Source: Pseudomonadota bacterium (GTDB lineage Bacteria; Pseudomonadota; Gammaproteobacteria; Ga0077536). From it: a stretch of 64,000 bases of DNA. Position 1 is the stretch's first letter; each line of letters begins with the position of its first letter. The stretch is from positions 64,814 to 128,813 of the forward strand of contig JADJYF010000010.1 in the NCBI GenBank assembly GCA_016719885.1. The letters are read 5' to 3'. Both the position numbers and the translations under genes were made by a program. Under the pieces are notes generated by a model that was given only the letters and a program-made list of their open reading frames with translations, was not told the DNA's origin and ran no database searches. Positions 6,175-21,636 of the stretch are shown in pieces.

Positions 6175-7251
6175 TCAGGCGAGATCCTGGCGCGCGAGGC
6201 CATGCCGGCCATCGAGAAACTTGTCGAAATGCACATGATCCGCGGCGATGCCCAGCGCGCTCAGCAGCGGCAGGGCGGCATCGATCATCGGCGGTGGGCC
6301 GCACAGATAGGCCTCGGTGTCGGCTGCGATCAAACTTTGCGCGGCGCTCGCGATGTGTTCGGTGACGAGCCCGCGTGCGCCTTGCCAAGCGGCATCGGCG
6401 GCGGCGTCGGACAACACCGGCACGAAGCTGAAGGCGCCGTTCCAGCGCGCGGCGATGGCATCGATGGCGTCCCGCGCGTAGAGATCGGCCTGGGTGCGCG
6501 CGCCGAACAGCAGTACACAGTTGCGCCCGACCTCGCGCGCCGTGGCACTCTCCAGCATGGCCAGCAAGGGCGCGAGGCCGCTGCCGCCGGCAATGCAGAT
6601 CATGGGCGCGCGGCTGTCGCGCAGCCAGAAATTGCCGGCGGGCCCGTGGATCTTGATGGGCATATCGGCGAGATGCCCGGCGAACAGCAGTTCGGTGAAC
6701 TCACCTTCGGGCACGCGGCGCACGAACAATTCGATGGTCGAATTGCCGGCCGCGGCGGGCGCCATGGCCAGCGAATAGGCACGCGCGCCGAACACCGCAT
6801 CGACGGCCAGTTGCACGTACTGGCCGGCGTCGAAGCGCAGCGGCCGATCCAGCGTCAAGGTGACACGCTTGATGTCGTGCGTGAGGTCCTGGAGCGCGGT
6901 GATGCGCCCGATGAAATCGCCGGCCGGATTGAGGCGCTTCGCTTCCAGGCCCGGCACCTCCAGCACCACGTCGGTCTTGGCGCCCGCCTGGCAGGCGAGC
7001 ACCACGTTGTCGCGCAGTTCCTCGGCCGACAGCACGTAGGCGAAATTGGTGATCTCGCGAATCTTGCCGGACTTGAGAAGGCACTTGCACGAACCGCAGG
7101 TGCCGACCGTGCAGCTATGGGGAAAGGCGATACCCTCCGCGAGCGCGGCCTCGAGTATGGATTGATGACGTTTGACCTCGAAGGCGACGCCCGAAGGTTG
7201 CACCGTCACCTTGCTGACGCTCTGTCCGAACAGCGCGCTCAAAATCCCCAT
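6175..7251 (-). CDS. Oxygenase reductase component: N-terminal plant-type 2Fe-2S ferredoxin fused to an FAD/NAD(P)-binding ferredoxin-reductase domain
   Basis: Cys cluster CTVGTCGSCKC plus a later Cys, RAYS FAD motif, and GGSGLAP NAD-binding motif. This is the BenC/XylA/MmoC-type architecture. Confidence 0.7.
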   Translation of the reverse strand: MGILSALFGQSVSKVTVQPSGVAFEVKRHQSILEAALAEGIAFPHSCTVGTCGSCKCLLKSGKIREITNFAYVLSAEELRDNVVLACQAGAKTDVVLEVPGLEAKRLNPAGDFIGRITALQDLTHDIKRVTLTLDRPLRFDAGQYVQLAVDAVFGARAYSLAMAPAAAGNSTIELFVRRVPEGEFTELLFAGHLADMPIKIHGPAGNFWLRDSRAPMICIAGGSGLAPLLAMLESATAREVGRNCVLLFGARTQADLYARDAIDAIAARWNGAFSFVPVLSDAAADAAWQGARGLVTEHIASAAQSLIAADTEAYLCGPPPMIDAALPLLSALGIAADHVHFDKFLDGRHGLARQDLA

Positions 7252-7386
7252 GGCCAGTCGCTCCCCCGCGATCGCCTGATTGTATTTCCAGAAGCCGGGC
7301 CAAAAGCTAACATACCGTACGCATGATTACGATTTTTTTTCGAGCCGTCGTCGGCGACGGATCTGTAAGGGGGAGAGACGGCGACA

Positions 7387-8955
7387 ATGTGGGTCTACAA
7401 GGAAATCCGGACGCTCGGCGACTACCTCGATTACTACGCCCGCCATGCGCCGACGCGCACGGCGCTGGTCTATGAAGGCCATCTGACGAGCTACGGCGAA
7501 CTCGACGAGCAGGCCCGGCGCCTCGCCCATGGCATGCGCGCGGCCGGCGTCACGAGCGGTGCGCGCGTGGTTTACCTCGGCAAGAACTCCGATGATTTCT
7601 TCCTCGCCCTGTTCGGCACCGTCAAGGCAGGCGCCTGTTTCTGTCCGCTCAACTGGCGTTTGTCGCCACCGGAGCTGTGCCGCGTGCTGGCCGATTCGGA
7701 AGCCTCGTTCGCGTTCGTCGAACCGGAATTCGCGACGCTGTGGGCGAGCATGGTCGAAGCGACCAATCTCGACATCACTGTCCAGGAAGTCGATCGCGCA
7801 CGCGGCGCGGACGATCCGCTGCGTCGCTGGCTGGGCGGTTTCGACAGCGCGCCGCTGCCGGCGGTGGCCATGGAAGCCGGCGCCATACAGCTCTACACCT
7901 CGGGCACCACGGGTGATCCCAAGGGCGTGGTGCTCACCCACGACAACTTCAATCACATGCGCCTGTGCGAGCATTTCGAAGCGGCCTTCGAATGGAAGCC
8001 GGAAGACCGCTTCCTGGTCGCGCTGCCGAACTTCCACCTGCTCGCCATCGGCCTGTCGCTGCAGTCGATGTACAACGGCATGGCGGTGGTGATCGACAGG
8101 CAGTTCGAGCCGGGCGCCGCCCTTGAGTCGATTTCCACGCAGAGGCCGACCATCACCGCGTTCGCGCCGGCCATGATCCAGATGCTGCTCGATCACCCGC
8201 AGGCGGCGCAGGCCGATTTCTCGTCGCTGCGTCTCGTGATGTATGCCGGCTCGCCGATTTCGCTCGGGCTCATCAAGCGCGCCATCGTCGCCATGCCCTG
8301 CCGCTTCATGCAGTTCTACGGCGCGACCGAGACCTCCGGCGCCGTCACGCTGCTGCGTCCGGCGGAGCACAACCTCGAACGCGAGGACAAGCTCAAGGCC
8401 TGCGGCAAACCGCTGCCGCTGATTGAACTGCGTATCGTCGACGAGCACGGGCAGGATGTGGCCGACGGCCAACCGGGCGAGCTATGGATCCGTTCTCCCT
8501 CCCTCGCCAGCGGTTACTGGAAGAAGCCGGAAATCACCGCGTCGGTGTTCGAGCAGGGCTGGTATCACAGCGGCGATATCGCGATCCGCGACGAGGAAGG
8601 GCTTTACTACATTCACGATCGCCTGAAGGACATGATCGTGTCGGGTGGCGAGAACATTTATTCGACCGAAATAGAATCGGTGCTCTCGACCCACGCCGCG
8701 GTGGCGGTCGCCGCCGTCATCGGCGTGCCCGATGCGCGCTGGGGCGAAGCGGTGAAAGCCTGCGTGGTGGTCAAGCCCGGCATGAGCGTCAGCGCCGATG
8801 AACTCATCGACTACTGCCGGCCGCGCCTGGCCGGCTACAAGCTGCCGAAGAGCATCGATTTCCACGCCTCGTTTCCCATGACCGGCAGCGGCAAGATTGC
8901 CAAGAAGGAGTTGCGCGAACCGTACTGGGCCGGCCAGGATCGCGGCGTCGGTTGA
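7387..8955 (+). CDS. Acyl-CoA synthetase (AMP-forming, class I adenylate-forming enzyme)
   Basis: YTSGTTGDPKGV AMP-binding motif, GYWKKPE, YHSGD, and C-terminal PMTGSGKIAKKEL. GGAGAG ribosome-binding site upstream. Confidence 0.8.
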   Translation: MWVYKEIRTLGDYLDYYARHAPTRTALVYEGHLTSYGELDEQARRLAHGMRAAGVTSGARVVYLGKNSDDFFLALFGTVKAGACFCPLNWRLSPPELCRVLADSEASFAFVEPEFATLWASMVEATNLDITVQEVDRARGADDPLRRWLGGFDSAPLPAVAMEAGAIQLYTSGTTGDPKGVVLTHDNFNHMRLCEHFEAAFEWKPEDRFLVALPNFHLLAIGLSLQSMYNGMAVVIDRQFEPGAALESISTQRPTITAFAPAMIQMLLDHPQAAQADFSSLRLVMYAGSPISLGLIKRAIVAMPCRFMQFYGATETSGAVTLLRPAEHNLEREDKLKACGKPLPLIELRIVDEHGQDVADGQPGELWIRSPSLASGYWKKPEITASVFEQGWYHSGDIAIRDEEGLYYIHDRLKDMIVSGGENIYSTEIESVLSTHAAVAVAAVIGVPDARWGEAVKACVVVKPGMSVSADELIDYCRPRLAGYKLPKSIDFHASFPMTGSGKIAKKELREPYWAGQDRGVG

Positions 8956-8978
8956 ACATCATCCACGAGGGCGGCGAC

Positions 8979-9350
8979 ATGAGCGAGACGCACGATACCC
9001 AGGCGCTGGTCGAGCGCTGGGCGCGCTATTACAACGATGACGCGACGCGCATGGTGCAGGAATGCTACGCCGCGGACTGCAAGGTCTACCCCATGGGGCT
9101 AGGCGTCATCGAAGGCCGCAAAGGGCTGCAGAAAGTGGAAGACGCGGTGCTCGCCAAGGCGCCTCGGCGTCGCCTGGAAGTGCTGCGCACCCATATCGCG
9201 GGGGACACCGTGTGTGTCGAGTGTGAACTCAAGGACGCCGATCGCGGCGCCGACTGGTCGGTGCCCTTCGTCGCGGTGCTGACCATTCGCGACGGTGAAG
9301 TGATCACCGACCGCACCTATGCCGACTGGAGCCGCTGGCCGGGCCTGTGA
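8979..9350 (+). CDS. SnoaL/NTF2-like small protein
   Basis: About 120 aa. A GAGGG ribosome-binding site precedes the internal ATG. Composition fits the NTF2-like cone fold; this is a weak call. Confidence 0.45.
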   Translation: MSETHDTQALVERWARYYNDDATRMVQECYAADCKVYPMGLGVIEGRKGLQKVEDAVLAKAPRRRLEVLRTHIAGDTVCVECELKDADRGADWSVPFVAVLTIRDGEVITDRTYADWSRWPGL

Positions 9351-9384
9351 ACCGTGGGTGCGCGTTCACGCGCACCTTCATCCG

Positions 9385-10228
9385 CTAGAACAGCACCGGC
9401 AGCGTCAGATGCTCGCGGTAGATGAAATCGCGATGCGCGCTCAAGGCCGCGGTCATGTGCAGTTCGATGTCCGGATCGGCATTGCGATAGGCCGGTCGAT
9501 AGCTGCTTGCCATCGGGCATAGCGCCGGCGGCAGGGGATCGAGCAGCGCGTAGAAGCAGGCCGCGTAGATGTCGAGCGCCGACAGGCTGTCGCCAACGAA
9601 ATATTCAGTGCCGCGCGCGCGGCTGATGGCGAGTTCGGCATCGAGCTTGACCAGGATCTCGATCATGCGCGCCTTGGCGGCCTGCCCCGCCGCCGGGGTG
9701 TAAAGATATTTCTCGCCCAGCGTCTTGCCAGAACGCGTAGTCGGCGCTGCCGGGTTCGGCATTGGCCAACGCCTGGCCGACCAGGATCAGCCGCTTGCTC
9801 CAGCCGAGACCGTTCTCGCCGGCGATTTCATTGATGAGGCCGAACATGCGCACGCGCGCCTCGAAGTCCGTGGGGACGAGGCGCGGCGCGGGCGCCAGTC
9901 GCTCGGCGAGGTTCAACTGGTCTATCCAACTCGAGCGCGGGCGTTCGTCCTCCCAGATGGCCACCGGTGCGCTGGACTGCGCGGTCCAGGCTATCAACTC
10001 GCTGTGGCTGCCGTCGGCGCCGAAGCTGGTTTCCGAGGCGCCCTCGTTTGAACAGCGCACCGGCACATAGGGGATGCCCTTGACGTCGAACAGGGATTTG
10101 CACGATTCGCGCCACGGACCGGGAATGGTGTAGGCGCCCAGGATCAGTCGCAGGCCGCCGAGCTTGCGCGCCTCGGCTATGGATACGTACTCGAGCTTGA
10201 TGTCTTCGAAACCGATGTCGGTCGTCAT
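9385..10228 (-). pseudogene. Glutathione S-transferase-like gene interrupted by a +/-1 frameshift near 9728-9735
   Basis: The N-terminal frame runs MTTDIGF...ADYAFWQ. The C-terminal frame runs (S)GKTLGEKYLYTP...FVGDSLSALDIYAACFYALL and is GST C-domain-like. The two frames are contiguous except for a one-base offset. A GAGAGAGGGG ribosome-binding site precedes the ATG at 10228. Confidence 0.4.
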
Positions 10229-10314
10229 GGCACGATCCCCTCTCTCGCCGCTGCGTGAGAGGAGGATTGCACAAACGCGGCGAAAGAAAAACGCTGCGGA
10301 ATGGAGGTATGAAT

Positions 10315-10368
10315 GTGCGAATGAATTCGCACCTACAAGGAGTCCTGTAGGTGCGATTTCAATCGCAC
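10315..10368. repeat. Composite palindromic element (family B): GTGCGAATGAATTCGCACCTAC + spacer + GTAGGTGCGATTTCAATCGCAC
   Basis: Direct reading. The half-site is the hairpin GTGCGAAT-NN-ATTCGCAC. Two further copies at 26003..26076 and 49310..49390. Confidence 0.6.
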
Positions 10369-10383
10369 ATTGATCGGGCGCTG

Positions 10384-11181
10384 CTAACGATAGAACTTCA
10401 TGAAGTCCGGTTCGCGCTTCTCGTTCAGGGCCTTCACGCCTTCCTGCGACTCCTCGGTGTAGTAGTAAAGACGCAGCGCCTGCATGGCGAGCTGGCCCAT
10501 GCCGCGGATGGACTCGGTGTCGGCGTTGAAGCTCTTCTTGGCGAGCGCGATGGCGGTCGGGCTGCGCTTGTTGAGTTCCTCGCACCAGCGCATCACTTCG
10601 TCATCGAGTTCGGCGTCGGGCACCACGGCGTTGATGAGGCCCATGTCCAGCGCTTCCTTGGCGGTGTAACGCTTGCACATGTACCAGATCTCGCGCGCCT
10701 TCTTCTCACCCACCACGCGTGCGAGGTAGGCGGTGCCGAAGCCGGGATCGACCGAGCCCATCTTGGGGCCGACCTGGCCGAAGATGGCGTTGTCGGACGC
10801 GATGGTCATGTCGCACAGCGTGCAGAACACGTTGCCGCCGCCGATGGCGTAGCCGCGCACCTTGGCGATGACCGGCTTCGGGATGTCACGGATCACCGAG
10901 TGCAGTTCTTCGACCGGCATGCCGACCGCGCCGCGCGCATCGTTGTTGCCGTACTGGCCACCGCTGTGGTCGGACTGGTCGCCGCCGGTGCAGAAGGCCT
11001 TGCCGCCGGCGCCGGTGAACACCACCGAGCCGATGTCGCGATCCCAGCCCGCCATCTGGAAGGCGTCCAGCAGCTCGACGACGGTGCGCGGGCGAAAGGC
11101 GTTGTATTTCTGCGGGCGATTGATGGTGATGATGGCGGTACGGCCCACCTTCTCGTAAAGAACGTCTTCGTAATTGCTCAT
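10384..11181 (-). CDS. Crotonase-superfamily enzyme of the MenB/BadI (naphthoate synthase / 2-ketocyclohexanecarboxyl-CoA hydrolase) subfamily
   Basis: FCTGGDQ motif and the C-terminal YYYTEESQEGVKALNEKREPDF signature of the MenB/BadI subfamily. Confidence 0.75.
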   Translation of the reverse strand: MSNYEDVLYEKVGRTAIITINRPQKYNAFRPRTVVELLDAFQMAGWDRDIGSVVFTGAGGKAFCTGGDQSDHSGGQYGNNDARGAVGMPVEELHSVIRDIPKPVIAKVRGYAIGGGNVFCTLCDMTIASDNAIFGQVGPKMGSVDPGFGTAYLARVVGEKKAREIWYMCKRYTAKEALDMGLINAVVPDAELDDEVMRWCEELNKRSPTAIALAKKSFNADTESIRGMGQLAMQALRLYYYTEESQEGVKALNEKREPDFMKFYR

Positions 11182-11211
11182 GGGACTCTCCTCATTTGCT
11201 GGCTGTAATTG

Positions 11212-12006
11212 TCAACCGATCATCGAATAGCCGCCGCTCACGCTCAGCACCTGGCCGGTGATGTGGCCGGCGGCTTCGGAAGCGAGAAACACCACGGCAT
11301 TGGCGACGTCTTCGGGGCGACCGATCTTCTTCAAGGGCAGGCTCTTGGCGATCTGGGCGAGCTGGTCGGGGGTGAACATGCTGTCCTTGTTGACCCACAT
11401 GCTGTTGGCGCCGACTTCCGAGGTCTCGGCCGGAATGGTCACGCCCGGGCACACCACATTGCAGCGTATGCCGTTGCGGCCGTTTTCCTTGGCGATGGTC
11501 TTCATGAAGCTGTTGACGCCGGCCTTCATGCCGCCGTAAACCGCCTCGCGCGGTTCGCCCTGGCGGCTGGCATCGGAGCTGATCGACACGATGGCGCCCT
11601 TGTTCTGCGGCGCCATGATCGCGAGCGCGGTGTGGGTGCAGTTCAACATGCCGACAAAATTGACCTGGATGATCTTGGCCCACAGGTCGGGTGTGGTCTG
11701 GGTGAAGAACATGAGCTTGTCCCAACCGACGTTGTTGACCAGCACATCGACCGCGCCGAAGGCATCGGTGGTGCGTTTGAACATGGCCTGCACCTGTTCG
11801 AGGGACGTGACATCGCACTGCACGACCTCGACCGCGGCGGCGCCGGCCTTGCGCGCCTCGTCGGCCACCGCGTTGGCCTGCGCGGTATCGATGTCGCCGA
11901 TGGTGATCCTGGCGCCTTCGCGCGCGAAGCCGAGCACGATCGCGCGGCCGATGTTCGAGCCACCGCCGGTAACGATGACGGCCTTGTTCTTGAGTCCGAG
12001 ATCCAT
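11212..12006 (-). CDS. SDR-family dehydrogenase (BadH-like, 3-hydroxyacyl-CoA dehydrogenase type)
   Basis: VTGGGSNIGRA Rossmann motif, NNVG, S...YGGMK catalytic residues. Directly adjacent to the BadI-like gene. Confidence 0.75.
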   Translation of the reverse strand: MDLGLKNKAVIVTGGGSNIGRAIVLGFAREGARITIGDIDTAQANAVADEARKAGAAAVEVVQCDVTSLEQVQAMFKRTTDAFGAVDVLVNNVGWDKLMFFTQTTPDLWAKIIQVNFVGMLNCTHTALAIMAPQNKGAIVSISSDASRQGEPREAVYGGMKAGVNSFMKTIAKENGRNGIRCNVVCPGVTIPAETSEVGANSMWVNKDSMFTPDQLAQIAKSLPLKKIGRPEDVANAVVFLASEAAGHITGQVLSVSGGYSMIG

Positions 12007-12038
12007 GAAAACGCTCCTCGTCGAATGCTAGTGTGATG

Positions 12039-12980
12039 TCAGCGCAGGCCGAAAGCGACACGCGCCGCCTGGTATTCGGAAATCAATCGTGCCACACGCA
12101 GGCCCGCCGGCACGATATCCGTGACGGCGCCGACGCCGTGGCCGCAGCCCCAGATGTCGCGCCAGGTCTTGTGCGAATCGCCGCTGGGGCTGACGTTGGT
12201 GGCGTGCTCGGGGTCGCGCCGCAGCGCCCGCGGGTCGAGCCCGGCGCGAACGATGGATCCGGCCAGGAAATTGGCCGGCACGCCGCTGAAATAATCGGTG
12301 GTGACGATGTCGGCGCTGCGCGCGCCGGTCACCATGGTCTTGTAATCAATCGCCGCGTTGGCTTCCTCGGTGGCGATGAACGGTGTGCCGATATAGGCCA
12401 GATCCGCGCCCGCCGCCAGCGCGGCCAGCACGCTGCGACCGGTGGCGATGGCGCCGGACAGCGCCAGCGGCCCATCCCACCAGCCACGGATCTCTTCCAC
12501 CAGCGCGAACGGCGAAACATTGCCGGTGTGGCCGCCCGCGCCCGCCGCCACCGCGATCAGGCCGTCGCAGCCGTTGTCGATGGCCTTGCGCGCATGGCGG
12601 TCGGAGATCACATCGTTGAACACCAGGCCGCCATAGGCGTGCACGGCATCGACGATGTCGCGGTCCGCCGACAGGCTGATGATGACGATGGGCACGCGGT
12701 GCTTGACGATGATCTCGGTGTCGCGCGCCAGGCGATCGTTGCTGCGGTGAGCAATCTGGTTGATGGCGAACGGTGCCATCGCGCCATCGGCGCTGAGCGC
12801 GCTCGTGATCTCGCCCAGCCACGCATCGAGCTGCACGTCGGTGCGAGCATTCAGCGCCGGCATCGAGCCGACGATGCCGGCCCGGCATTGCGCCACCACC
12901 AGCGCCGGCGTCGAGACGATGAACATCGGCGCCGCCATGATCGGCGCGCGCAGCGTGGCAAGGAGCGTGGGCAGCGACAT
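12039..12980 (-). CDS. Nitronate monooxygenase / 2-nitropropane-dioxygenase-family FMN oxidoreductase (possible enoyl reductase)
   Basis: N-terminal PIMAAPMF(IVS) motif and a Gly-rich FMN-binding region AAGAGGHTG. Confidence 0.7.
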   Translation of the reverse strand: MSLPTLLATLRAPIMAAPMFIVSTPALVVAQCRAGIVGSMPALNARTDVQLDAWLGEITSALSADGAMAPFAINQIAHRSNDRLARDTEIIVKHRVPIVIISLSADRDIVDAVHAYGGLVFNDVISDRHARKAIDNGCDGLIAVAAGAGGHTGNVSPFALVEEIRGWWDGPLALSGAIATGRSVLAALAAGADLAYIGTPFIATEEANAAIDYKTMVTGARSADIVTTDYFSGVPANFLAGSIVRAGLDPRALRRDPEHATNVSPSGDSHKTWRDIWGCGHGVGAVTDIVPAGLRVARLISEYQAARVAFGLR

Positions 12981-12995
12981 GACGGTCTCGGCGAC

Positions 12996-14132
12996 TCAGA
13001 TGGCGCGGCTGATCAGTTCTTTCATGATCTCGGACGAGCCACCGTAGATGCGCTGGATGCGGGTGTCCTTCCAGAGCCGGGCAATCTCGTATTCGTTCAT
13101 GTAGCCATAGCCGCCGAACAGCTGCACGCAGGCATCGGTCACCGTCGAGCGCAGCTCGGTGTGAAAGAGCTTGGCCGAGGCCGCCTGGTCGGTGGTGAGC
13201 TTGCGCGCCACCAGCGCGGCCATGCAGGCATCGAGGTGCGCCCAGCCAACCTGCAGTTGGGTACGCAGATCGGCCAGCACGAAGCGCGTGTTCTGGAATT
13301 CCATCAGCGCATGGCCGAAGGCCTGGCGCTGCTTGACGTAGTCGACGGTCAGATCGTAGGCGCGTTGCGCGGCCGAATGCGCGGTCACGGCAATCGACAT
13401 GCGCTCCTGCGGCAGCTCCTGCATCATGTACACGAAGCCCTGGTTCTCGGCGCCCAGCAGGTAATGGGCCGGCACCGTGAGATCGTCGAAGAAGATCTCG
13501 GCGACGTCGGACGAGGCCTGGCCGACCTTGTCGAGCTTGCGCCCGACCTTGAAGCCGGGCCGGTCGGTTTCGCAGAAGAACAGCGAGATGCCCTTGGCGC
13601 CCGGCTCGGCGCCGGTACGCGCGGCGATGATGGCGATGTCCGCCGTCACGCCATTGGTGATGAAGGTCTTGGCGCCATTGATGCGGTAGTGGTCGCCTTC
13701 GCGCAGCGCGGTGCTGCGGATGGCTTTCAGATCGCTGCCGCCGCCCGGCTCGGTCATGCAGATGCAGGCGATGGCGCTGCCATCGACCATGCGCGGGATC
13801 CAGGCCTGGCGCACATCGTCGTGGGCATATTTCAAGAGGTAGTGCGCAACGATGTCCGAATGCACGCCGAACGCCGGCGTCGCCGAGCCGGTGTAGGACG
13901 TTTCTTCCAGCACGATGGCATTGGCGCGAAAGTCGAGACCGGCGCCGCCATAGGCTTCCGGCATGTCGGGACACAACACGCCCTGCTCGCCGCAGGCGCG
14001 CCAGAAGGACTTGTCGACCTGGCCCTGCGCTTCCCAGCGCGGAATGTTGGGCGTCAGCTCGGCGGCGAAGAAACGCCGCACCGCGTCGCGGAACTGGTGG
14101 TGCTCGTCGTCGAAGATGGTGCGCGCCAGCAT
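12996..14132 (-). CDS. Acyl-CoA dehydrogenase
   Basis: Motifs CMTEPGGGSDL, FITNG and C-terminal QLFGGYGYMNEYEIARLWKDTRIQRIYGGSSEIM. Confidence 0.85.
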   Translation of the reverse strand: MLARTIFDDEHHQFRDAVRRFFAAELTPNIPRWEAQGQVDKSFWRACGEQGVLCPDMPEAYGGAGLDFRANAIVLEETSYTGSATPAFGVHSDIVAHYLLKYAHDDVRQAWIPRMVDGSAIACICMTEPGGGSDLKAIRSTALREGDHYRINGAKTFITNGVTADIAIIAARTGAEPGAKGISLFFCETDRPGFKVGRKLDKVGQASSDVAEIFFDDLTVPAHYLLGAENQGFVYMMQELPQERMSIAVTAHSAAQRAYDLTVDYVKQRQAFGHALMEFQNTRFVLADLRTQLQVGWAHLDACMAALVARKLTTDQAASAKLFHTELRSTVTDACVQLFGGYGYMNEYEIARLWKDTRIQRIYGGSSEIMKELISRAI

Positions 14133-14144
14133 GTCCTTAATCTC

Positions 14145-15311
14145 TCAGTAGCTCTTCGGCAGGTCCAGGACCTTTTCGGCGATGAAGCACTTGATCAATT
14201 GCTCGGTGACCGGCGCGATGCGCGTGATGGTCACTTCGCGCAGCAGCCTTTCGACGTGGTATTCGCGTGCGTAGCCGAAACCGCCGTGGGTCATCACCGC
14301 CTGCAGGCAGGCCTCATGACCGGCCTTGGCGCCGAGAAACTTGGCGGCATTGGCCTCGGCGCCGCAGGGCCGGCCGTTGTCGTACAGCCACGCCGCCTTC
14401 ATGGCGATGGTGTAGGCCGCTTCGAGATTCATCCAGTTCTCGGCGAGCGGGTGCTGTATGCCCTGGTTCATGCCGATGGGCCGATCGAAGACCACGCGCT
14501 CCTGCGCGTAGCGGGTGGCGCGGCGCAGGGCATCCTGGCCGACACCGATGGCCTCGATGGCGATCAGCACGCGCTCGGGATTCAAGCTGTGCAGGATGTA
14601 ACCGAAGCCCTTGCCCTCTTGACCGATCAGGTCCTCATCGGGAATGAACAGGTTGTCGATGAACACCGCGTTCGAATCGACCGCCTTGCGGCCCATCTTC
14701 GGAATGCGCTTGATTTCCATCTTGCTGCGGTCGACATCGGTGTAGAACACGCTGATGCCATCGGTCGGGCGCTTGCAATCCTCGAGACGCGTGGTGCGCG
14801 CCAGCAGCATGATCTTGCTTGCCACCTGGCCGGTGGAGGTCCACACCTTCTGGCCATTGACGAGGTAGCCGCCGTCGACCTTCTTGGCGAAGGTCTTGAT
14901 ATGGGTGGTGTTGAGACCGGCATCCGGTTCGGTGACGCCGAAGCAGCATTTGTCCTGCCCCGCCACCAGCCGCGGCACCCAGCGCCGCTTCTGTTCGTCG
15001 GTACCGAACACCACGATGGGGTGCGGCCCGAACAGGTTGATATGCACGGTCGACGCCGCGGCGATACCACCGCCGTTGCTCACCACCTCGTGCATCATGA
15101 GCGCGGCTTCGGTCACGCCGAGGCCGGCGCCACCGTAGGCTTCCGGCATGGTGATGCCGAGCCAGCCGGCCTCGGCCATGGCGGCGTGGAAGGCATGCGG
15201 GAATTCGCCATCGTCATCGCGTTCGAGCCAGTAGTCGGCATCGAACTTGTGCACCACCGCACGCACCGCCTGCTGGATTGCACGTTGCTCTTCGGTCAAA
15301 TCGAAATCCAC
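14145..15311 (-). CDS. Acyl-CoA dehydrogenase
   Basis: Motifs GVTEPDAGLN, WTST and C-terminal QAVMTHGGFGYAREYHVERLLREVTITRI. Confidence 0.85.
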   Translation of the reverse strand: MDFDLTEEQRAIQQAVRAVVHKFDADYWLERDDDGEFPHAFHAAMAEAGWLGITMPEAYGGAGLGVTEAALMMHEVVSNGGGIAAASTVHINLFGPHPIVVFGTDEQKRRWVPRLVAGQDKCCFGVTEPDAGLNTTHIKTFAKKVDGGYLVNGQKVWTSTGQVASKIMLLARTTRLEDCKRPTDGISVFYTDVDRSKMEIKRIPKMGRKAVDSNAVFIDNLFIPDEDLIGQEGKGFGYILHSLNPERVLIAIEAIGVGQDALRRATRYAQERVVFDRPIGMNQGIQHPLAENWMNLEAAYTIAMKAAWLYDNGRPCGAEANAAKFLGAKAGHEACLQAVMTHGGFGYAREYHVERLLREVTITRIAPVTEQLIKCFIAEKVLDLPKSY

Positions 15312-15541
15312 GACAGTCTCCTTCAGTGATGGCTGGCGAACATGACACGGGCAAGCCTCGGCACGCGAGCGTGTCGACAGCGTGCGAGCGCGCGATGGCT
15401 TGACGAACAGATTAGCCTGCGTATAGTAAGCATGCGTATTACCTCTGTCAAAGGGATTTACACCAGCGTATGGTCAGCGTCGATATACTTTCCCGCGTCG
15501 CCAGTGCGCTGGCCGGCAGTGATCTCGCAACGGGAGGATCC

Positions 15542-16033
15542 ATGGCGCGCGAAAACGAAAATATCGGCGACGAACAAGTGAGTGACGAAGACTGGGCCAT
15601 CCGCCTCGGCTTCTATATCCACGACACCTCGCGCCTGCGTCGCATCATATACAACGCCGCATTGAAACCCGCCGGCGTGACGCGTTCGCAGGCTTGGGTG
15701 TTGGCCTATCTCGGGCGCAAAGACGGCATGGCGCAATCGGAGTTGGCGGCACAGCTCGATCTCGGCAAGGTCGCGCTCGGTGGCCTGGTCGACCGGCTCG
15801 AGGCGGTGGAATTGGTGGAGCGTCGCAGCGATGCCAAGGACCGTCGCGTCAAGCGCATCTTCCTGACCGCCGCCGGACGCAAGGTGGTGAACAAGATGCG
15901 CTCCATTTCCGAGCCCACCAACGCCGAGATCCTGGCCGGCATCTCGCCGGAAGACGTGCGCGCCACGGCCCGCACCCTGCGCGCGATCAAGGACAACCTG
16001 CTCAAGATGGCCGCCGGCAAGCTTCAGGAATAA
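15542..16033 (+). CDS. MarR-family transcriptional regulator (BadR-like position and orientation)
   Basis: Winged-helix region SQAWVLAYLGRKDGMAQSELAAQLDLGKVALGGLVDRLE...DRRVKRIFLT. Divergent from the acyl-CoA dehydrogenase genes. GGGAGGA ribosome-binding site. Confidence 0.75.
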   Translation: MARENENIGDEQVSDEDWAIRLGFYIHDTSRLRRIIYNAALKPAGVTRSQAWVLAYLGRKDGMAQSELAAQLDLGKVALGGLVDRLEAVELVERRSDAKDRRVKRIFLTAAGRKVVNKMRSISEPTNAEILAGISPEDVRATARTLRAIKDNLLKMAAGKLQE

Positions 16034-16039
16034 GGCGCG

Positions 16040-17710
16040 ATGATCCGCCACGAGTTGAAGAACCTGCGCCTGGACATCGATGCCGACGGCATCGGCGTGG
16101 CACTCGTGGACATGCCGGGACGACCGTTCAATGTCTTCTCGGACGACATGATCGACGACCTCGCCGCGCTCATCACGCTCATCGAAAAGACGCCGACGCT
16201 GAAAGCCGTGGTCATTGCCTCGGGCAAGGACGCCTTCATGGCCGGCGCCGATCTCGCCATGGTGCAAGGTTTCACCACGCTGCGCTTCAAGCACACGCCC
16301 GCCGAGATCCGTCGCGTGTTCTCGCGTCTCACCTACACCCTGCGCAAACTCGAAAAGCTGCGCGTGCCGACCGTGGCGGCCGTCAATGGCCTGGCGCTCG
16401 GCGGCGGTCTCGAATTGGCGATGGCCTGCCACTACCGCATCGCCGCGCAAGGCGCCACGCCCTGCCTGGGCCTGCCCGAAGTATTGTTGGGCCTGCTGCC
16501 GGGCGCGGGCGGCACGCAACGACTGCCGCGCCTCACCAGTCCCGCATTCGCGGCGCGCATGCTGCTCGGCGGTCAAGCGGTGACGCCGGCGGAGGCGCTC
16601 GAAGCGGGACTGGTCGATGCGCTCGCGGATCCTGCGGCGCTCCTCGCCAGCGCACGGGAAATGGCGCGCCACGCCACCCCCGGCGCACGCTGGGACCGGC
16701 GCGGTTGGCGCGCACCGGCCGACCTCGAACGGCTGCTCGATGCGCCCGACAGCGTCGAGCGATTGTTGGCGATGGCATGTACGGGCCCACGCGTGGCGCA
16801 TCTCTACCCGGCCGTCGGCGCCATCATGCAATGCCTGCGCGACGGCTTTCATCGCGATATCGAGGCCGGCATCGAAGTCGAGATCGACAGCTTCCTGCCG
16901 CTCATGCTGGGCCCGGTGGCCGGCAACATGGTGCGTACGAGTTTCCTGTCCAAGACCGCCGCGCCGAAACGCGCCGCCGCGCGCGCAGGCGCCAAGCCGG
17001 CCGACATCACGCGCGTGGCGGTACGGGGCCTCGCCAGCCTCCCGCCGCGCCTCGCCAAGCGCTTCGAAGTGGCGGCCGACGCCAGCGCCGCCGATGCGCT
17101 GCTGGCATTCGACGATGCCGCGACGCGCATCATCCGCGTGCGCGCCCTGCGCCATGACACGCCTGGCGACGGCGACGCGGAACTGCGCCTCGCCGCGCCT
17201 TTCGAGCACGCCGACGGTGTCGAGATTGCCGGCTCGGATGCCGCCGCCACCGCGGTCGCGCTCGGCATCGCCCAGCGCCTGCGCATGACGCCGGTGGTCA
17301 CCACGGCGGCGACGCCGGGCGCGGTGCACACCCTGCAAGAAGCAGTGCGCGCCTACGCCGCGCAGCACATCGGCAGCGCCAGCGCGCGCGCGGCGGCCGC
17401 CCATGCGCTCGATCTCGAGGCCTTGTTCGTGCGCGCCGGTCTCGAGGTCGCCGCGCTTGCGGGCTACACCGATGTCGATCGCGTCTACGGACTCAAACTG
17501 TTGACCACCGTGGCACTGGAAGCGGCGCGCCTGCTCGACGAAGGCGTGTTCGCCTGCGCCGAGGACGCCGATGTGCTGGCGGTATTCGCGCTCGGCTTTC
17601 CGGCCTGGAGCGGCGGGCCGCTCAGCTACCTCGACATGCTGCGCCGTGGCGAACTCGCCGGCGCCCAGGCGCCCGCCACGCTGCGCGCGGCCCCCTATTA
17701 CTCCCATTGA
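16040..17710 (+). CDS. FadB-like fusion protein: enoyl-CoA hydratase domain + linker + degenerate 3-hydroxyacyl-CoA dehydrogenase domain
   Basis: N-terminal crotonase motifs (VAAVNGLALGGGLELAMACHYR). A FadB-type linker and a C-terminal 3HCDH_C-like region are present. Where the GxGxxG NAD motif is expected the sequence is VAVRGLASL. Confidence 0.65.
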   Translation: MIRHELKNLRLDIDADGIGVALVDMPGRPFNVFSDDMIDDLAALITLIEKTPTLKAVVIASGKDAFMAGADLAMVQGFTTLRFKHTPAEIRRVFSRLTYTLRKLEKLRVPTVAAVNGLALGGGLELAMACHYRIAAQGATPCLGLPEVLLGLLPGAGGTQRLPRLTSPAFAARMLLGGQAVTPAEALEAGLVDALADPAALLASAREMARHATPGARWDRRGWRAPADLERLLDAPDSVERLLAMACTGPRVAHLYPAVGAIMQCLRDGFHRDIEAGIEVEIDSFLPLMLGPVAGNMVRTSFLSKTAAPKRAAARAGAKPADITRVAVRGLASLPPRLAKRFEVAADASAADALLAFDDAATRIIRVRALRHDTPGDGDAELRLAAPFEHADGVEIAGSDAAATAVALGIAQRLRMTPVVTTAATPGAVHTLQEAVRAYAAQHIGSASARAAAAHALDLEALFVRAGLEVAALAGYTDVDRVYGLKLLTTVALEAARLLDEGVFACAEDADVLAVFALGFPAWSGGPLSYLDMLRRGELAGAQAPATLRAAPYYSH

Positions 17711-17790
17711 AATCACGAGGACGCTGACATGATGAGCCCGGCTCGTCTTCATCACGCCACGGCGGCGCGCGCCGCGCGGAGCGTGCACCC

Positions 17791-18978
17791 ATGATCGGAC
17801 GCAAACTGTTCTCGCCCGATCATGAAATCTTTCGCGACGCGTGCCGCAAGTTCATCGCCAGGGAAATCACGCCGTTCCATGCGCAATGGGAAGAGGCCGG
17901 CATCGTACCGCGCGACCTGTGGCGCAAGGCCGGCGAAGCGGGCATGTTGTGCTGCGCGGTGCCCGAAGCCTACGGCGGCGCCGGCGCCGACTGGCTGTAC
18001 GACGTGGTGGTGTTCGAGGAGATGGCACGCGCCGGCGCCACCGGCCCGGGCTTCATGATCCATACCGACCTGGTCGCCACCTATCTCAGTTCTTTCGGCA
18101 CCGAAGAGCAGAAGAAGCAATGGCTGCCGAAGATGGTCAGCGGCGAGGTGATCGGCTCGCTCGGCATGACCGAGCCGCACGCCGGCTCCGATCTCAAGAA
18201 CATCCGCACGCGCGCGGTGCGCGATGGCGACGACTACGTCATCAACGGCCAGAAGGTGTTCATCTCCAACGGCCAGCTGTGCGACCTCATCGTGCTCGCC
18301 ACCAAGACCGATGGCGCGGCCGGCGCCAAGGGCATCACCCTGTTCCTGGTCGAGGGCGACCGCGCCGGCTTCACGCGCGGCCGCAACCTCGAAAAGCTCG
18401 GCATGAAAGCGCAGGACACCTCCGAGCTGTTCTTCGAGAACGTACGCGTGCCGGCGTCCAACATGCTCGGCAAGGAAGGCGAAGGCTTCGCCATCATGAT
18501 GACCAAGCTCGCGCAGGAGCGACTGGCCCAGGCCATCCGCAGCGCCACGGTGATCGAAGCCGTCATCGACTGGACGGTGGAGTACACCGCCCAGCGCGAA
18601 GCTTTCGGTCAGACCATCGCCGACTTCCAGAACACCCAGTTCAAGCTCGCCGAGTTGAAGGTCGAAGCGACCGCCGGCCGCGTGCTCACCGACCGCTGCA
18701 TGGAGTTGTTCCTGGCTGGCGAGCTCGACCCGCTCGACGCCGCGATGGCCAAGATGTTCCTGTCCAACCTGCACTGCAAGACGGTCGACGAATGTCTGCA
18801 GCTGTTCGGCGGCTGGGGCTACATGTGGGAATACCCGATCTGCCGCGCCTACGCCGACGCGCGCGTGGTGAAGATCGCGGGCGGTTCGATAGAGATCATG
18901 AAGTACCTGATCGGCCGCGACATGTTCAAGGCCCACAAAGAGCGCGGTGCGCAGCGTGACAGCGCGGCGCGACAGTAA
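17791..18978 (+). CDS. Acyl-CoA dehydrogenase
   Basis: Motifs GMTEPHAGSDL, FISNG and QLFGGWGYMWEYPICRAYADARVVKIAGGSIEIM. Paralog of CDS 12996..14132. Confidence 0.85.
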   Translation: MIGRKLFSPDHEIFRDACRKFIAREITPFHAQWEEAGIVPRDLWRKAGEAGMLCCAVPEAYGGAGADWLYDVVVFEEMARAGATGPGFMIHTDLVATYLSSFGTEEQKKQWLPKMVSGEVIGSLGMTEPHAGSDLKNIRTRAVRDGDDYVINGQKVFISNGQLCDLIVLATKTDGAAGAKGITLFLVEGDRAGFTRGRNLEKLGMKAQDTSELFFENVRVPASNMLGKEGEGFAIMMTKLAQERLAQAIRSATVIEAVIDWTVEYTAQREAFGQTIADFQNTQFKLAELKVEATAGRVLTDRCMELFLAGELDPLDAAMAKMFLSNLHCKTVDECLQLFGGWGYMWEYPICRAYADARVVKIAGGSIEIMKYLIGRDMFKAHKERGAQRDSAARQ

Positions 18979-19013
18979 AGAGTGAAAGCAACGGTTGTTC
19001 GGGGAGACGGCTC

Positions 19014-20132
19014 ATGTTCACGGATTACGCACGCTATTACCTGACTTTCGGCCTGCAGCTGTTGACGGCCACCGGCCTGTGCCTGGGCGGCGCCTGGGCG
19101 TGGCTCGGACTGTCGACGCTGTTCGTATTCGCGGTCATCGACGAGTTGTTGCCGCTCGATCTCGCGGTGCGACACATGAACAACCGACGCCTGGCCAGCA
19201 TTCCGCTGTGGCTGTGCACGTTGAGTGGTCCGCTGCTGGTGCTGGTGCTGGCATGGACCGCCGCCCACGGCCATTTCAGCGGCATCGACTGGGCCGGCGC
19301 CCTGATCAGCACCGCCTGGATGTCGGTCATCGCCTACGTGCCGGCCTCCCACGAGCTTTACCATCAGCGCGGCTGGCTGCCGCAGGTGGTGGGCACCTAT
19401 GGCCAGGTGGTGTATCTCGACTGCACGCGCAACGTCGGCCACACCGTCGGCCATCATCTCGACGTCGGCACGTTGGCCGATTCCGATACCGCGGTGCGCG
19501 GCAAGACGCTGTACGGCTTCACGCCACGCGCGGTGCTGGCCAGCACGCTGATGTCATCCCGCATCGAGAGCGACGCGCTGGAAAAGCGCGGCTACGGCCG
19601 CTGGTCGTGGCGGCACAAGGCCTACAAGGCGGTGCTCGCGCAGCTCGTGTTCCACACCATCGCCTACAGCGTGGCCGGCTGGACGGGCGTGGCGGCGGCG
19701 CTCGGTTCGATGCTGATCGCGCGGCTGTGGGTCGAGTCCTTCAACTACTTCCAGCACTACGGCATCGTGCGCGCCGAAGGCCGGCCGATAGCGCGTCGCC
19801 ACGTGTGGAATCATCTTGGCTTCTTCACGCGCATCGTCGCTTTCGAGATCACCAACCACGCCGATCATCATCTCGATTCCTATATCCCCTATTACAAGCT
19901 GAAGCCCGACACCACCGCGATCCGCACGCCCAACGTGTTCCTGTGCTTCCTGACCGCCTTGATACCGCCCCTGTGGCACAAGGTCATCATCATGCCGAAG
20001 CTCAAGGAGTGGGACTTGAAATTCGCCAGCGCCGAAGAGCGCGACATCGCGCGCGCGCAGAACCTCGCCGCCGGCTGGCCGGACTGGTTTGCCGATTCGA
20101 CGCCGGCGTCCGGCGCGACCGTCGCTGCCTGA
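19014..20132 (+). CDS. alkB: Integral-membrane non-heme di-iron hydroxylase of the AlkB / fatty-acid-desaturase family (alkane 1-monooxygenase-like)
   Basis: Histidine boxes HELYHQ, GHTVGHH and NHADHH, plus NYFQHYG motif. Several hydrophobic segments. GGGGAGA ribosome-binding site. Confidence 0.7.
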   Translation: MFTDYARYYLTFGLQLLTATGLCLGGAWAWLGLSTLFVFAVIDELLPLDLAVRHMNNRRLASIPLWLCTLSGPLLVLVLAWTAAHGHFSGIDWAGALISTAWMSVIAYVPASHELYHQRGWLPQVVGTYGQVVYLDCTRNVGHTVGHHLDVGTLADSDTAVRGKTLYGFTPRAVLASTLMSSRIESDALEKRGYGRWSWRHKAYKAVLAQLVFHTIAYSVAGWTGVAAALGSMLIARLWVESFNYFQHYGIVRAEGRPIARRHVWNHLGFFTRIVAFEITNHADHHLDSYIPYYKLKPDTTAIRTPNVFLCFLTALIPPLWHKVIIMPKLKEWDLKFASAEERDIARAQNLAAGWPDWFADSTPASGATVAA

Positions 20133-20166
20133 CATTCACTTCAACGCCAAGCCCAGGACGTCTCCG

Positions 20167-21417
20167 ATGGCCAACGCATCCCATCCCGACATCAATCTCA
20201 GCACCCTCGAATTCTGGGCACGGCCCTATGAAGAACGGGAAAAGAGTTTCAAGTGGCTGCGTGACAACCAGCCGGTGTCCTGGCACCCGGCGCCGGAGCC
20301 TCTCGCGCCGGGGCTGGAGAACAGCAAGGGCTTCTGGGCCATCACGCGTTTCGAACACATCAAGGACCTATCGCGCAACGACGCCGTATTCTCGTCGGCG
20401 GAAGGCGTGTTCCTCGACGACTTTCCGCAGCTCGAGACCATACTCTCGTTCATCGTCATGGATGACCCGCGCCACAAGGCGCTGCGCAACATCGTCCAGC
20501 ACGCCTTCAGCCCACGGAACATCCGGCGCATGGAGCAGCAGATCCGCGAGATGACCGAGAGCGTCATCGGCGAGGTGGCGCATCTCGGTGAAGGCGACTT
20601 GTGCGAACTGGTGTTCAAGCAATTGCCGGGGCGCGTGTTCGCCGGCGTGTTCGTCGGTATCAGCGATCCGCACAAGCGCGAGATCCTGATCGAAGCCGCC
20701 GAACAGCTCGGCAGCTGGGCCGACCCCAGCTATGCGCACATCGGTTCACCGCTGGCGGTGTTCCAGGACGCTGCGCAGAAGATCATGACCATTGCCTACG
20801 CGGAAGCCGAGCGCTGCCGGCGCGAACCCGATGACAACCTCATGACCTGGGTGGTCGAAGCCGATCACGAAGGCCAGCGCATGACCCAGGACGAGCTCGG
20901 CGCATTCTTCACGCTGCTGGTTGGCGCGGCCAACGACACCTCGCGGCATGCCATGGCCCACGCGGTCATGAACCTGCAGAATCATCCCGAGCAGAAGGCC
21001 TGGCTGCTGCAGGACTTCGAAGCGCGCATCGACAACGCGGTCGAAGAGATCCTGCGCTGGTCGCCGCCTTTGATGCATTTCCGCCGCACCGCGCTGCGCG
21101 ATTTCGAGCTCGACGGCGTGACCATCAAGAAAGGCGACAAGTGCGTGCTGTGGTATTGCTCGGGCAACCGTGACGAAAGGGCGGTGCCGGCGCCGGACAG
21201 CTTCGATCTCAACCGTGCGCCCAACCGCCACTTGAGCTTCGGCTATGGCCCGCACTTCTGCATGGGCGCCTCGCTCGGTCGCCAGATGGTGAAATCGAGC
21301 CTGCGCGAGTTCTCACGACGCATGCCCGACCTGGTGGTCGGCGAGCCCAAGATGCTGCTGTCCAATTTCATGAACGGCGTACTGTCGCTGCACGGGCGCT
21401 GGACGCCGCCCGCCTGA
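20167..21417 (+). CDS. Cytochrome P450
   Basis: Heme-binding loop FGYGPHFCMGASLG, ExxR (EEILR), and an I-helix GAANDTS-type motif. Confidence 0.85.
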   Translation: MANASHPDINLSTLEFWARPYEEREKSFKWLRDNQPVSWHPAPEPLAPGLENSKGFWAITRFEHIKDLSRNDAVFSSAEGVFLDDFPQLETILSFIVMDDPRHKALRNIVQHAFSPRNIRRMEQQIREMTESVIGEVAHLGEGDLCELVFKQLPGRVFAGVFVGISDPHKREILIEAAEQLGSWADPSYAHIGSPLAVFQDAAQKIMTIAYAEAERCRREPDDNLMTWVVEADHEGQRMTQDELGAFFTLLVGAANDTSRHAMAHAVMNLQNHPEQKAWLLQDFEARIDNAVEEILRWSPPLMHFRRTALRDFELDGVTIKKGDKCVLWYCSGNRDERAVPAPDSFDLNRAPNRHLSFGYGPHFCMGASLGRQMVKSSLREFSRRMPDLVVGEPKMLLSNFMNGVLSLHGRWTPPA

Positions 21418-21463
21418 GCGGCGACGTGCCTGGTGGGCGGGCAGGCCGCATGGCGTGCCCGCA

Positions 21464-21483
21464 ATGCCAATCGATTGGCATTC
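21464..21483. promoter_or_regulatory. Perfect 20-bp palindrome AATGCCAATCGATTGGCATT in the P450/TlpA intergenic region; candidate operator or hairpin
   Basis: Direct reading. The sequence equals its own reverse complement. Confidence 0.4.
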
Positions 21484-21636
21484 CTGACATTGCCCCACGC
21501 CGATTCGCGGCATCGGCCCAAACCATGGCGGCCGGTCCGGGTCGCAAGCACGCCTACGATCAGCGTCATCACGAATGACGAACGCCCAAGATGCTAAATA
21601 ACGCCGGCCACCCGGCGCTGTGCGCAAGGAGACTGC

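Follow-up and report, generated by a model that had tools for sequence, protein, structure and literature searches.

A putative BadI-type ring-opening gene cluster with a divergent MarR-family regulator in an uncultured gammaproteobacterium

Alicyclic carboxylic acids, among them the naphthenic acids of oil, cyclic terpenoid acids and the metabolites of alkylcyclohexanes, are plentiful and in many cases toxic, and which organisms and genes clear them from oxic habitats has been mapped only poorly. Here we describe a candidate gene cluster for the opening of such rings in a 64,000-nucleotide stretch of an uncultured gammaproteobacterium of the Ga0077536 lineage (GenBank assembly GCA_016719885.1, contig JADJYF010000010.1, positions 64,814 to 128,813), which we call the window. 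The core of the cluster is a block at positions 7387-18978, which an earlier note, written from the sequence alone, had likened to the bad-ali genes for cyclohexanecarboxylate degradation in Rhodopseudomonas palustris. The window has a guanine-plus-cytosine (GC) content of about 66%, and genes were called by their third-position GC and then checked with Pfam and NCBIfam; every gene that the earlier note had listed was found where it had been placed. The genes on which the interpretation turns are:

7387-8955, plus strand: acyl-coenzyme A (CoA) ligase (Pfam AMP-binding and AMP-binding_C)
10384-11181, minus strand: BadI-type crotonase (NCBIfam TIGR03210, two trees, sequence signatures)
11212-12006, minus strand: BadH-like short-chain dehydrogenase/reductase (SDR; top NCBIfam model TIGR03206)
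12039-12980, minus strand: FMN protein of the nitronate monooxygenase (NMO)/FabK family (Pfam NMO, 80.9 bits)
12996-14132, minus strand: acyl-CoA dehydrogenase (ACAD) 2, resembling long-chain acyl-CoA dehydrogenase (LCAD; matches to PDB 2pg0 and human LCAD)
14145-15311, minus strand: ACAD1, the operon's first gene (three Pfam ACAD domains)
15470-16033, plus strand: MarR-family regulator (Pfam MarR_2 and MarR), divergent from the ACAD operon
16040-17710, plus strand: FadB/FadJ-like hydratase (ECH_1 over residues 19-211)
17791-18978, plus strand: ACAD3, LCAD-like (human LCAD, 404 bits)

The five minus-strand genes form an operon with gaps of 12-32 nt, in the order ACAD-ACAD-NMO reductase-SDR-hydrolase, and the MarR gene is transcribed away from it, so that the divergent MarR regulator of the earlier note is present opposite the ACAD operon.

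The crotonase belongs to the subfamily that holds both BadI and MenB. Its top NCBIfam model is the BadI equivalog TIGR03210, at 425.9 bits and under the cut-off of 467.6, and it also falls below the cut-offs of the MenB models PRK07396 (353.4 against 380) and TIGR01929 (331.3 against 342.7). We placed it in two trees, both “quick” IQ-TREE runs with support from the Shimodaira–Hasegawa-like approximate likelihood ratio test (SH-aLRT) only, in which BadI and MenB but not Oah sequences were included. The first tree held 92 proteins, namely relatives from public genomes, 3 BadI sequences above the cut-off, 17 gammaproteobacterial MenBs (the annotated E. coli MenB among them) and crotonases of the organism’s own genome as outgroup, and it set a MenB clade (SH-aLRT 97) apart from a BadI-side clade (SH-aLRT 96) that contains the window protein. 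The second (78 rows), with 45 full-length representatives added from 50%-identity clusters of 1.84 billion proteins, gave the same split and an SH-aLRT of 99 for the BadI-type clade. The phylogeny against BadI and MenB that the earlier note had suggested thus does not group the crotonase with true MenB. Within the BadI side, the window protein lies in a subclade of its own (SH-aLRT 95) beside the canonical BadI clade (99), canonical here meaning sequences above the TIGR03210 cut-off together with loci in badH-badI-aliB-aliA order. Members of the canonical clade do occur in that order, and those sampled are 60-64% identical to the window crotonase.

In the alignment, the crotonase has GQVGPKMGSVDPGFG and GGGNV at positions where MenB has GQTGPKVGSFDGGWG and GGGHV, and GSVDPG in place of the GSFDGG of MenB; GSVDPG, GGGNV and LYY are signatures that it shares with canonical BadI. 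When it is aligned with the over-cut-off BadI sequences and E. coli MenB, the putative catalytic Ser-x-Asp and Tyr positions are seen to be kept; the roles assumed for these residues are those reported by Eberhard & Gerlt (2004). It is the sole member of the BadI/MenB subfamily among the genome’s 46 crotonase matches, and in the 5.4 Mb genome, which is 100% complete, MenC found no match and the top match for MenD reached 84 bits against a cut-off of 244. Judged by model scores, clade, signatures and the missing MenD and MenC, the crotonase is of the BadI rather than the MenB type, and we predict that it is a 2-oxo-cycloalkane-1-carboxyl-CoA hydrolase that opens the ring by a retro-Dieckmann reaction.

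The neighboring SDR would supply the substrate of such a hydrolase, as a predicted 2-hydroxy-cycloalkane-1-carboxyl-CoA dehydrogenase. Its top model is that of BadH (TIGR03206), at 230 bits and well short of the cut-off of 431, and it is the highest BadH scorer among 102 candidates scored in the genome. An SDR adjoins the BadI-type gene in most related loci, and the window’s SDR is only 41-44% identical to those that adjoin canonical BadI.

The “FadB-like hydratase” of the earlier note keeps only part of the FadB/FadJ architecture. The protein aligns to FadJ residues 8-315 and 627-677, and to no others; the aligned parts are the hydratase plus linker (residues 10-330) and the last C-terminal domain (residues 492-542). 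Both hydratase Glu residues are kept, but no 3-hydroxyacyl-CoA dehydrogenase or NAD-binding part can be detected: Pfam 3HCDH gave no match even at E<=10, and there is no GxGxxG in the region where it would be expected (residues 280-380). Orthologues of 549-576 aa that likewise have no GxGxxG in residues 280-380 occur in relatives and in Zhongshania, which indicates a conserved architecture rather than decay. A protein with hydratase activity only would fit the pathway, since the dehydrogenase is a separate SDR, and we regard this NAD-less FadB/FadJ-like protein as the candidate ring hydratase, analogous to BadK or MrcF.

The three ACADs agree in the position of their catalytic base. ACAD2 matches PDB 2pg0 (363 bits) and human LCAD (340 bits) and has its catalytic Glu243 in a QER motif; ACAD3 has Glu243 in QER as well. 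The two are 45% identical to each other and 27-28% identical to ACAD1, which has a Pro at the position of the Glu in medium-chain acyl-CoA dehydrogenase (MCAD) and instead carries Glu246, in a PER motif, at the position used in isovaleryl-CoA dehydrogenase (IVD) and LCAD. All three therefore have the helix-G base at the IVD/LCAD position. IVD and LCAD accept substrates that are branched or bulky. None is an AliB orthologue by the model TIGR03207, which has a cut-off of 575 bits and gave 231 for ACAD3, 212 for ACAD2 and 176 for ACAD1. ACAD3 is the ACAD most widely conserved near BadI-type genes.

The suggestion that the two adjacent ACADs form a PimCD-like pair was not borne out. Against the PimC and PimD models (TIGR03204 and TIGR03203, cut-offs 624 and 653 bits), ACAD2 scored 116 and 88 bits and ACAD1 109 and 110 bits; each has its own catalytic Glu; and either can be lost independently among relatives, ACAD1 being missing in locus L007 and ACAD2 in L010 and L014 (L numbers denote the loci compared). 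We rejected the heteromer on these grounds.

The CoA ligase scores 516.5 bits with NCBIfam PRK06187, above the cut-off of 476, and the AliA model TIGR03208 is not among its 25 best models, which puts it below 242 bits against a cut-off of 792. By these scores the ligase is not an AliA orthologue, and its role in the activation step is predicted from its family. For the NMO/FabK-family protein the closest solved structures are FabK enoyl-ACP reductases, with a low score of 67 bits, and its gene is missing from five of the related loci (L005, L007, L026, L062 and L065); we infer an enoyl- or dienoyl-CoA reductase that is an optional member of the operon.

Expression of the block appears to be organized around a single operator. 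The elements concerned are:

15400-15451: divergent sigma-70-like promoters (minus strand, TTGACA-17-TACTAT; plus strand, TTGACG-16-TATAGT), overlapping operator copy 1
15423-15438, minus strand: operator copy 1, TACGCATGCTTACTAT, in the MarR/ACAD1 intergenic region
7318-7333, plus strand: operator copy 2, TACGCATGATTACGAT, between the divergent reductase and CoA ligase genes

The MarR/ACAD1 pair comprises the only two promoter-like sites found in 7000-21700. At these divergent promoters the operator has the core TACGCATG[CA]TTAC[TG]AT, which recurs upstream of the CoA ligase. The block that overlaps both promoters is kept in 11 relatives while its flanks vary, and copy 2 is likewise a conserved block with variable flanks in 7 relatives. 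In the 5.4 Mb genome the 16-nt motif is matched perfectly at exactly two sites, both at this cluster, and in 1.1 Mb of compared loci it is confined to this family’s clusters. Specificity is obtained only with the full 16 nt: the 12-nt core, tried as a search motif with up to 2 mismatches, gave 9 matches against 7.9 expected, which is the chance level, and was dropped. The sole one-mismatch copy, TACACATGATTACTAT, lies on contig 5 (C5:153696), upstream of a minus-strand operon (C5:148545-153700; L112) for a Zn-alcohol dehydrogenase, an APH kinase and two proteins of 166 aa and 769 aa, the larger of them a DUF7064/DUF7065 protein. This kinase is 44% identical to the APH kinase of the window, and the operon probably belongs to the same regulon.

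The MarR protein, which we infer to be the one that binds this putative operator, is presumably an autoregulated repressor. It is kept at its position with 68-91% identity in relatives and 51-54% in Zhongshania and in L113, a betaproteobacterial locus described below. The picture suggested by the operator copies is of one MarR regulon with an operator of its own that also draws in kinase/DUF7064 genes, and the new operator might find use as a component of biosensors. Two relatives have an additional operator-like site between the hydratase gene and ACAD3 (L007:5303 and L010:4041); the corresponding interval of the window, 17711-17790, has none.

These genes do not stand together by chance: they are syntenic in many contigs of related metagenome-assembled genomes (MAGs) and share a genome-unique operator. 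The arrangement MarR / ACAD1-ACAD2-(NMO)-SDR-BadI recurs in about 15 contigs of uncultured Gammaproteobacteria, with CoA ligase-(reductase)-DUF7064-kinase on one flank and (hydratase)-ACAD3-(AlkB-like)-(P450) on the other. A BadI-type gene is present in 46 of the 81 genomes of the order, which in GTDB consists of a single family, and in all ten of the genus, so this uncultured gammaproteobacterial family commonly holds its own version of the ring-opening module. More distant family members have crotonase-SDR-BadI, a badKHI-like order, and alphaproteobacterial relatives have BadI-ACAD-crotonase-SDR. Marine and coastal hydrocarbon surveys have recorded the Ga0077536 lineage.

On both sides the functional unit reaches past the block, to the left as far as a reductase and to the right as far as two hydroxylases:

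6175-7251, minus strand: Fer2-FNR reductase of the XylA/BenC type (Pfam Fer2, FAD_binding_6 and NAD_binding_1)
19014-20132, plus strand: AlkB-like membrane di-iron hydroxylase (Pfam FA_desaturase)
20089-21417, plus strand: cytochrome P450 of the CYP268/CYP125/CYP124 type (Pfam p450)

The Fer2-FNR reductase is syntenic beside the ligase in six relatives (L001, L005, L007, L009, L012 and L026) and probably passes electrons to either the AlkB-like hydroxylase or the P450. In the ESM Atlas, the clusters nearest to the AlkB-like protein are annotated “alkane 1-monooxygenase” (score 0.96), and its gene is syntenic with ACAD3 in L007, L009 and L010. The P450, whose true start codon probably lies downstream of 20089, matches CYP268A2 (324 bits), CYP125 (281 bits) and CYP124 (268 bits) in the PDB, enzymes that act by terminal hydroxylation on methyl-branched lipids, on terpenoids and on sterol side chains.

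With moderate confidence, we read these genes as a MarR-repressed catabolic regulon for an alicyclic carboxylic acid, which would be activated with CoA and then opened by beta-oxidation. The reactions are assigned from family membership, and the substrate is probably substituted, that is, an alkylcyclohexane, naphthenic or terpenoid acid rather than plain cyclohexanecarboxylate. With electrons from the Fer2-FNR reductase, the AlkB-like hydroxylase and/or the P450 would first oxidize a cyclic hydrocarbon or lipid at a methyl or alkyl terminus, and the CoA ligase would activate the resulting acid. The LCAD-type ACAD1-3 would then form the 1,2 double bond, trim a side chain, or do both, with the NMO/FabK-like flavoprotein removing extra unsaturation where needed. 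Hydration of the enoyl-CoA would fall to the NAD-less FadB-like protein and oxidation of the 2-hydroxy group to the BadH-like SDR, and the BadI-type crotonase would hydrolyze the 2-oxo acyl-CoA in a retro-Dieckmann reaction, yielding a (possibly substituted) pimeloyl-CoA for ordinary beta-oxidation.

Several observations weigh against this proposal. The scores for BadI (425.9 against 467.6) and BadH (230 against 431) lie below the curated cut-offs, and the subclade of the window crotonase is marked by an insert of three residues in the loop that follows the GGDQ motif; together with the separate placement of that subclade, this means that the substrate of the crotonase, and even its reaction, could be different. 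Orthologues of AliA, AliB and BadK are missing from the window’s cluster, and no alcohol or aldehyde dehydrogenase is encoded within the block. The full route as proposed is not invariant, since the genes for NMO, for the hydratase, for the AlkB-like protein and for one ACAD or another are each missing in some relatives. Finally, the genome’s highest-scoring AliB-like ACAD, at 385 bits still under the cut-off of 575, is encoded on another contig, in a crotonase-ACAD-SDR operon (C11:40709-43413; L110:10710-13414) that could supply the AliB- and BadK-type steps; the genome-wide motif search found no operator copy at this operon.

Among the alternatives, the one that survives best, although we consider it unlikely, is that the cluster is a plain orthologue of bad-ali that converts unsubstituted cyclohexanecarboxylate to pimeloyl-CoA, with the adjacent ACADs as a PimCD-like heteromeric pimeloyl-CoA dehydrogenase. 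The likeness to the bad-ali systems of R. palustris and of Aromatoleum sp. CIB is real in that BadI and BadH are the top models for the crotonase and the SDR, the crotonase falls within the same BadI-side clade, and ligase, ACAD, hydratase, SDR and ring-opening hydrolase are all encoded. The bad-ali chemistry is oxygen-independent, also works aerobically and is widespread in aerobes such as Cupriavidus and Rhodococcus, often without badK, and Gram-negative bad-ali clusters have a divergent MarR-type regulator (PMC9795900). An aerobic setting is therefore not unusual, and the aerobic aromatic-degradation context named in the earlier note was confirmed, with pobA-, pcaB-, pcaHG- and pcaIJ-type genes at about 35.7-41 kb of the window.

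Orthology, however, does not hold up. All five Bad/Ali equivalog cut-offs are missed; AliA, AliB, BadK and BadR have no orthologues in the cluster; canonical BadI is a separate clade with 99% support and with the badH-badI-aliB-aliA order; and the PimC/PimD scores of 88-116 bits (against more than 620), the Glu in each ACAD and the absence of one of them in L007, L010 or L014 leave little of the proposed heteromer. The BadR operator CAAN4TTG is absent from the MarR/ACAD intergenic region (15312-15469), where the operator is TACGCATGMTTACKAT; in the window as a whole, CAAN4TTG has 16 matches against 8.7 expected. The NMO reductase, the second and third ACADs, the NAD-less FadB-like hydratase, the AlkB-like hydroxylase and the P450 are additions relative to bad-ali. 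The window cluster fails every bad-ali orthology test except BadI-clade membership. The ring-opening logic drawn in the earlier note thus survives in the BadI-type crotonase, the BadH-like SDR and the divergent MarR regulator, while its gene-for-gene mirroring of badHI-aliAB-badK does not.

A closer parallel, in gene order, appears to be mrcABCDEFGH, the monoterpene ring-cleavage cluster of Castellaniella defragrans 65Phen (PMC4109377), a comparison that is based on the gene order and reaction types given in that description. The ACAD-reductase-SDR-hydrolase order matches mrcB-C-D-E, in which the SDR is BadH-like and the hydrolase BadI-like, with the NMO gene in the position of MrcC; the mrc hydratase is also longer than 400 aa, unlike the 260-aa BadK; a MarR gene and further ACADs are close by; and mrc is fed, as the window’s cluster would be, by the oxidation of a ring methyl group to an acid that a CoA ligase then activates. 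Growth of C. defragrans on limonene needs an OYE-type reductase and the 412-aa hydratase (PMC4109377). The differences are that the mrc reductase is this OYE-type 2,4-dienoyl-CoA reductase, whereas that of the window is of the NMO/FabK family, and that the window’s cluster has no MaoC genes and no limonene dehydrogenase, so oxidation would fall to the AlkB-like hydroxylase or P450. MrcE is 88% identical to the BadI of Azoarcus sp. KH32C (PMC4109377), whereas the window protein reaches about 60-64% to canonical BadI. Most likely the cluster is a variant of the known bad-ali and mrc pathways rather than a new kind of system, and the most useful outcomes are a BadI subclade that is distinct, a new operator with its regulon, and an NMO protein that stands where the terpene pathway has its dienoyl-CoA reductase.

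That such a variant has a substrate other than plain cyclohexanecarboxylate is also argued by a betaproteobacterium (G284) that holds both types: L114, a canonical locus in badH-badI-aliB-aliA order, and L113 (contig 10, 8000-27000), a second locus of the BadI type. The latter encodes orthologues of ACAD1 (77%) and ACAD3 (74%), the MarR protein (54%), a hydratase of 429 aa, and an APH kinase together with a small partner; beyond the window’s set it has CoA-transferase, BKACE, MaoC and SCP-x-type thiolase genes. Six Zhongshania/Spongiibacter loci (L046-L051) are similar, with an ACAD3 orthologue (76% in Zhongshania) and MarR, and with the AlkB-like gene in two of the six (L046 and L049). Both groups share with the window the long NAD-less hydratase, the BadH-like SDR and a BadI-type hydrolase, although the BadI-type proteins of these groups, which have an SVDAG/SFDAG motif, fall in a different subclade and show 59-65% identity to that of the window. 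The set of ACAD1, ACAD3, MarR and long hydratase marks a second, uncharacterized type of BadI-containing pathway that is shared across classes. A literature search on this cluster type returned only the known bad-ali reports from Rhodococcus and Cupriavidus.

A second alternative, which we hold to be decidedly unlikely, dispenses with ring opening altogether: the region would be an island for the beta-oxidation of branched- or long-chain lipids, and the crotonase would act on an acyclic substrate, for example in a retro-Claisen cleavage of a beta-keto or beta-diketo acyl-CoA without a ring, or catalyze some other reaction of the crotonase fold. The LCAD-like ACAD2 and ACAD3, a P450 that resembles the omega-hydroxylases of methyl-branched lipids, the AlkB-like hydroxylase, a ligase of the “long-chain-fatty-acid-CoA ligase” subfamily and a genome with 46 crotonase matches and at least 23 ACAD paralogues would all suit this, as would a crotonase that stays under the BadI cut-off and whose loop insert is specific to its clade. 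To our knowledge, however, the only activities characterized in the BadI/MenB subfamily are Dieckmann-type ring formation and ring opening, and the crotonase keeps the putative catalytic Ser, Asp and Tyr along with the BadI-type signatures. Also at odds with an acyclic substrate is the pairing of SDR and BadI in most loci sampled, usually with an ACAD and a hydratase, which together make up the four-enzyme ring-opening set.

Degradation of the rings of steroids, hopanoids or polycyclic terpenoids, in a HIP-like pathway with an IpdC-like NMO protein and with the kinase/DUF7064 genes removing a tertiary alcohol, is in our view very improbable. NMO-family reductases (IpdC) do take part in the breakdown of the steroid C and D rings, the P450 has close matches among the CYP125 steroid C26-monooxygenases, and the common operator ties the cluster to kinase/DUF7064 operons. 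Steroid pathways open their rings by way of IpdAB and EchA20 and are not known to use BadI-type enzymes for this, and no IpdAB-like CoA-transferase, KshA or KstD gene is found in the block; the NMO protein, with only 67 bits to FabK, has little likeness to any characterized enzyme.

That the crotonase is instead MenB, the 1,4-dihydroxy-2-naphthoyl-CoA synthase of menaquinone biosynthesis, can be dismissed on sequence grounds with near certainty in spite of the 52-53% identity to E. coli MenB (b2262; PDB 2iex and 3t88), the shared putative Ser/Asp/Tyr and closest solved structures that are all MenB, because it misses both MenB cut-offs, lies outside the MenB clade, has GSVDPG instead of GSFDGG, and is embedded in an acyl-CoA catabolic operon of a genome without the men pathway. 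Relative to MenB, its reaction would be expected to run in the opposite direction. Such genes should be annotated neither as MenB nor as plain “cyclohexanecarboxylate” genes.

Within the preferred reading, of a regulon for ring opening of an alicyclic acid, a bolder version can be put forward, which as a whole we think unlikely. APH kinase/DUF7064 modules stand both beside the ligase in the window and at the third operator site, on the other contig, and one MarR regulon might couple hydroxylation by the AlkB-like enzyme or P450, an ATP-dependent “phosphorylate-then-eliminate” dehydration by the APH kinase and the lyase-like DUF7064 proteins, and NMO-assisted opening by the BadI-type enzyme. 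If true, these three modules would constitute an aerobic route, not described so far, by which cyclic terpenoids or alkyl-cycloalkanes with an unreactive (e.g. tertiary) alcohol are degraded; the route would be widespread in the uncultured gammaproteobacterial family and would have a counterpart in betaproteobacteria that also carry canonical bad-ali.

Two further genes lie between the ligase and the crotonase:

8952-9350, plus strand: SnoaL/NTF2-like protein (Pfam SnoaL_2, E 3.7e-11)
9385-10228, minus strand: gene with a C-terminal glutathione S-transferase (GST) fold, frameshifted (found by tblastn)

The start of the SnoaL-like gene overlaps the ligase stop codon by 4 nt, and the gene is syntenic in L001-L003, L005 and L026; its product is possibly an isomerase or a hydratase-type helper. 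The GST-like gene has one extra base near 9727, and tblastn places its two halves in frames -1 and -2. Its orthologues in L001 and L003 are intact (280 aa), and an indel error in the assembly is as likely an explanation of the frameshift as a true pseudogene.

Elsewhere in the window, a second cytochrome P450 gene (34518-35714, minus strand) adjoins the beta-ketoadipate genes of the pcaB/pobA type. Just upstream of the window (C10:59992-64228; L111:15179-19415) is an aromatic ring-hydroxylating module, consisting of Rieske dioxygenase alpha and beta subunits, an extradiol dioxygenase, an SDR and a divergent TetR gene, which borders the kinase/SDR block at the start of the window. Lastly, the high-GC cluster, at 83-98% protein identity, also turned up in records under unrelated names (L001, L058 and L060, with accessions beginning CAMCBY01, and L027, L014 and L021), namely “Klebsiella pneumoniae” and “uncultured Klebsiella” MAGs, a “Myxococcota” chromosome and a “Hydrogenophaga intermedia” MAG; these oddly named records are probably mis-binned or mislabelled.

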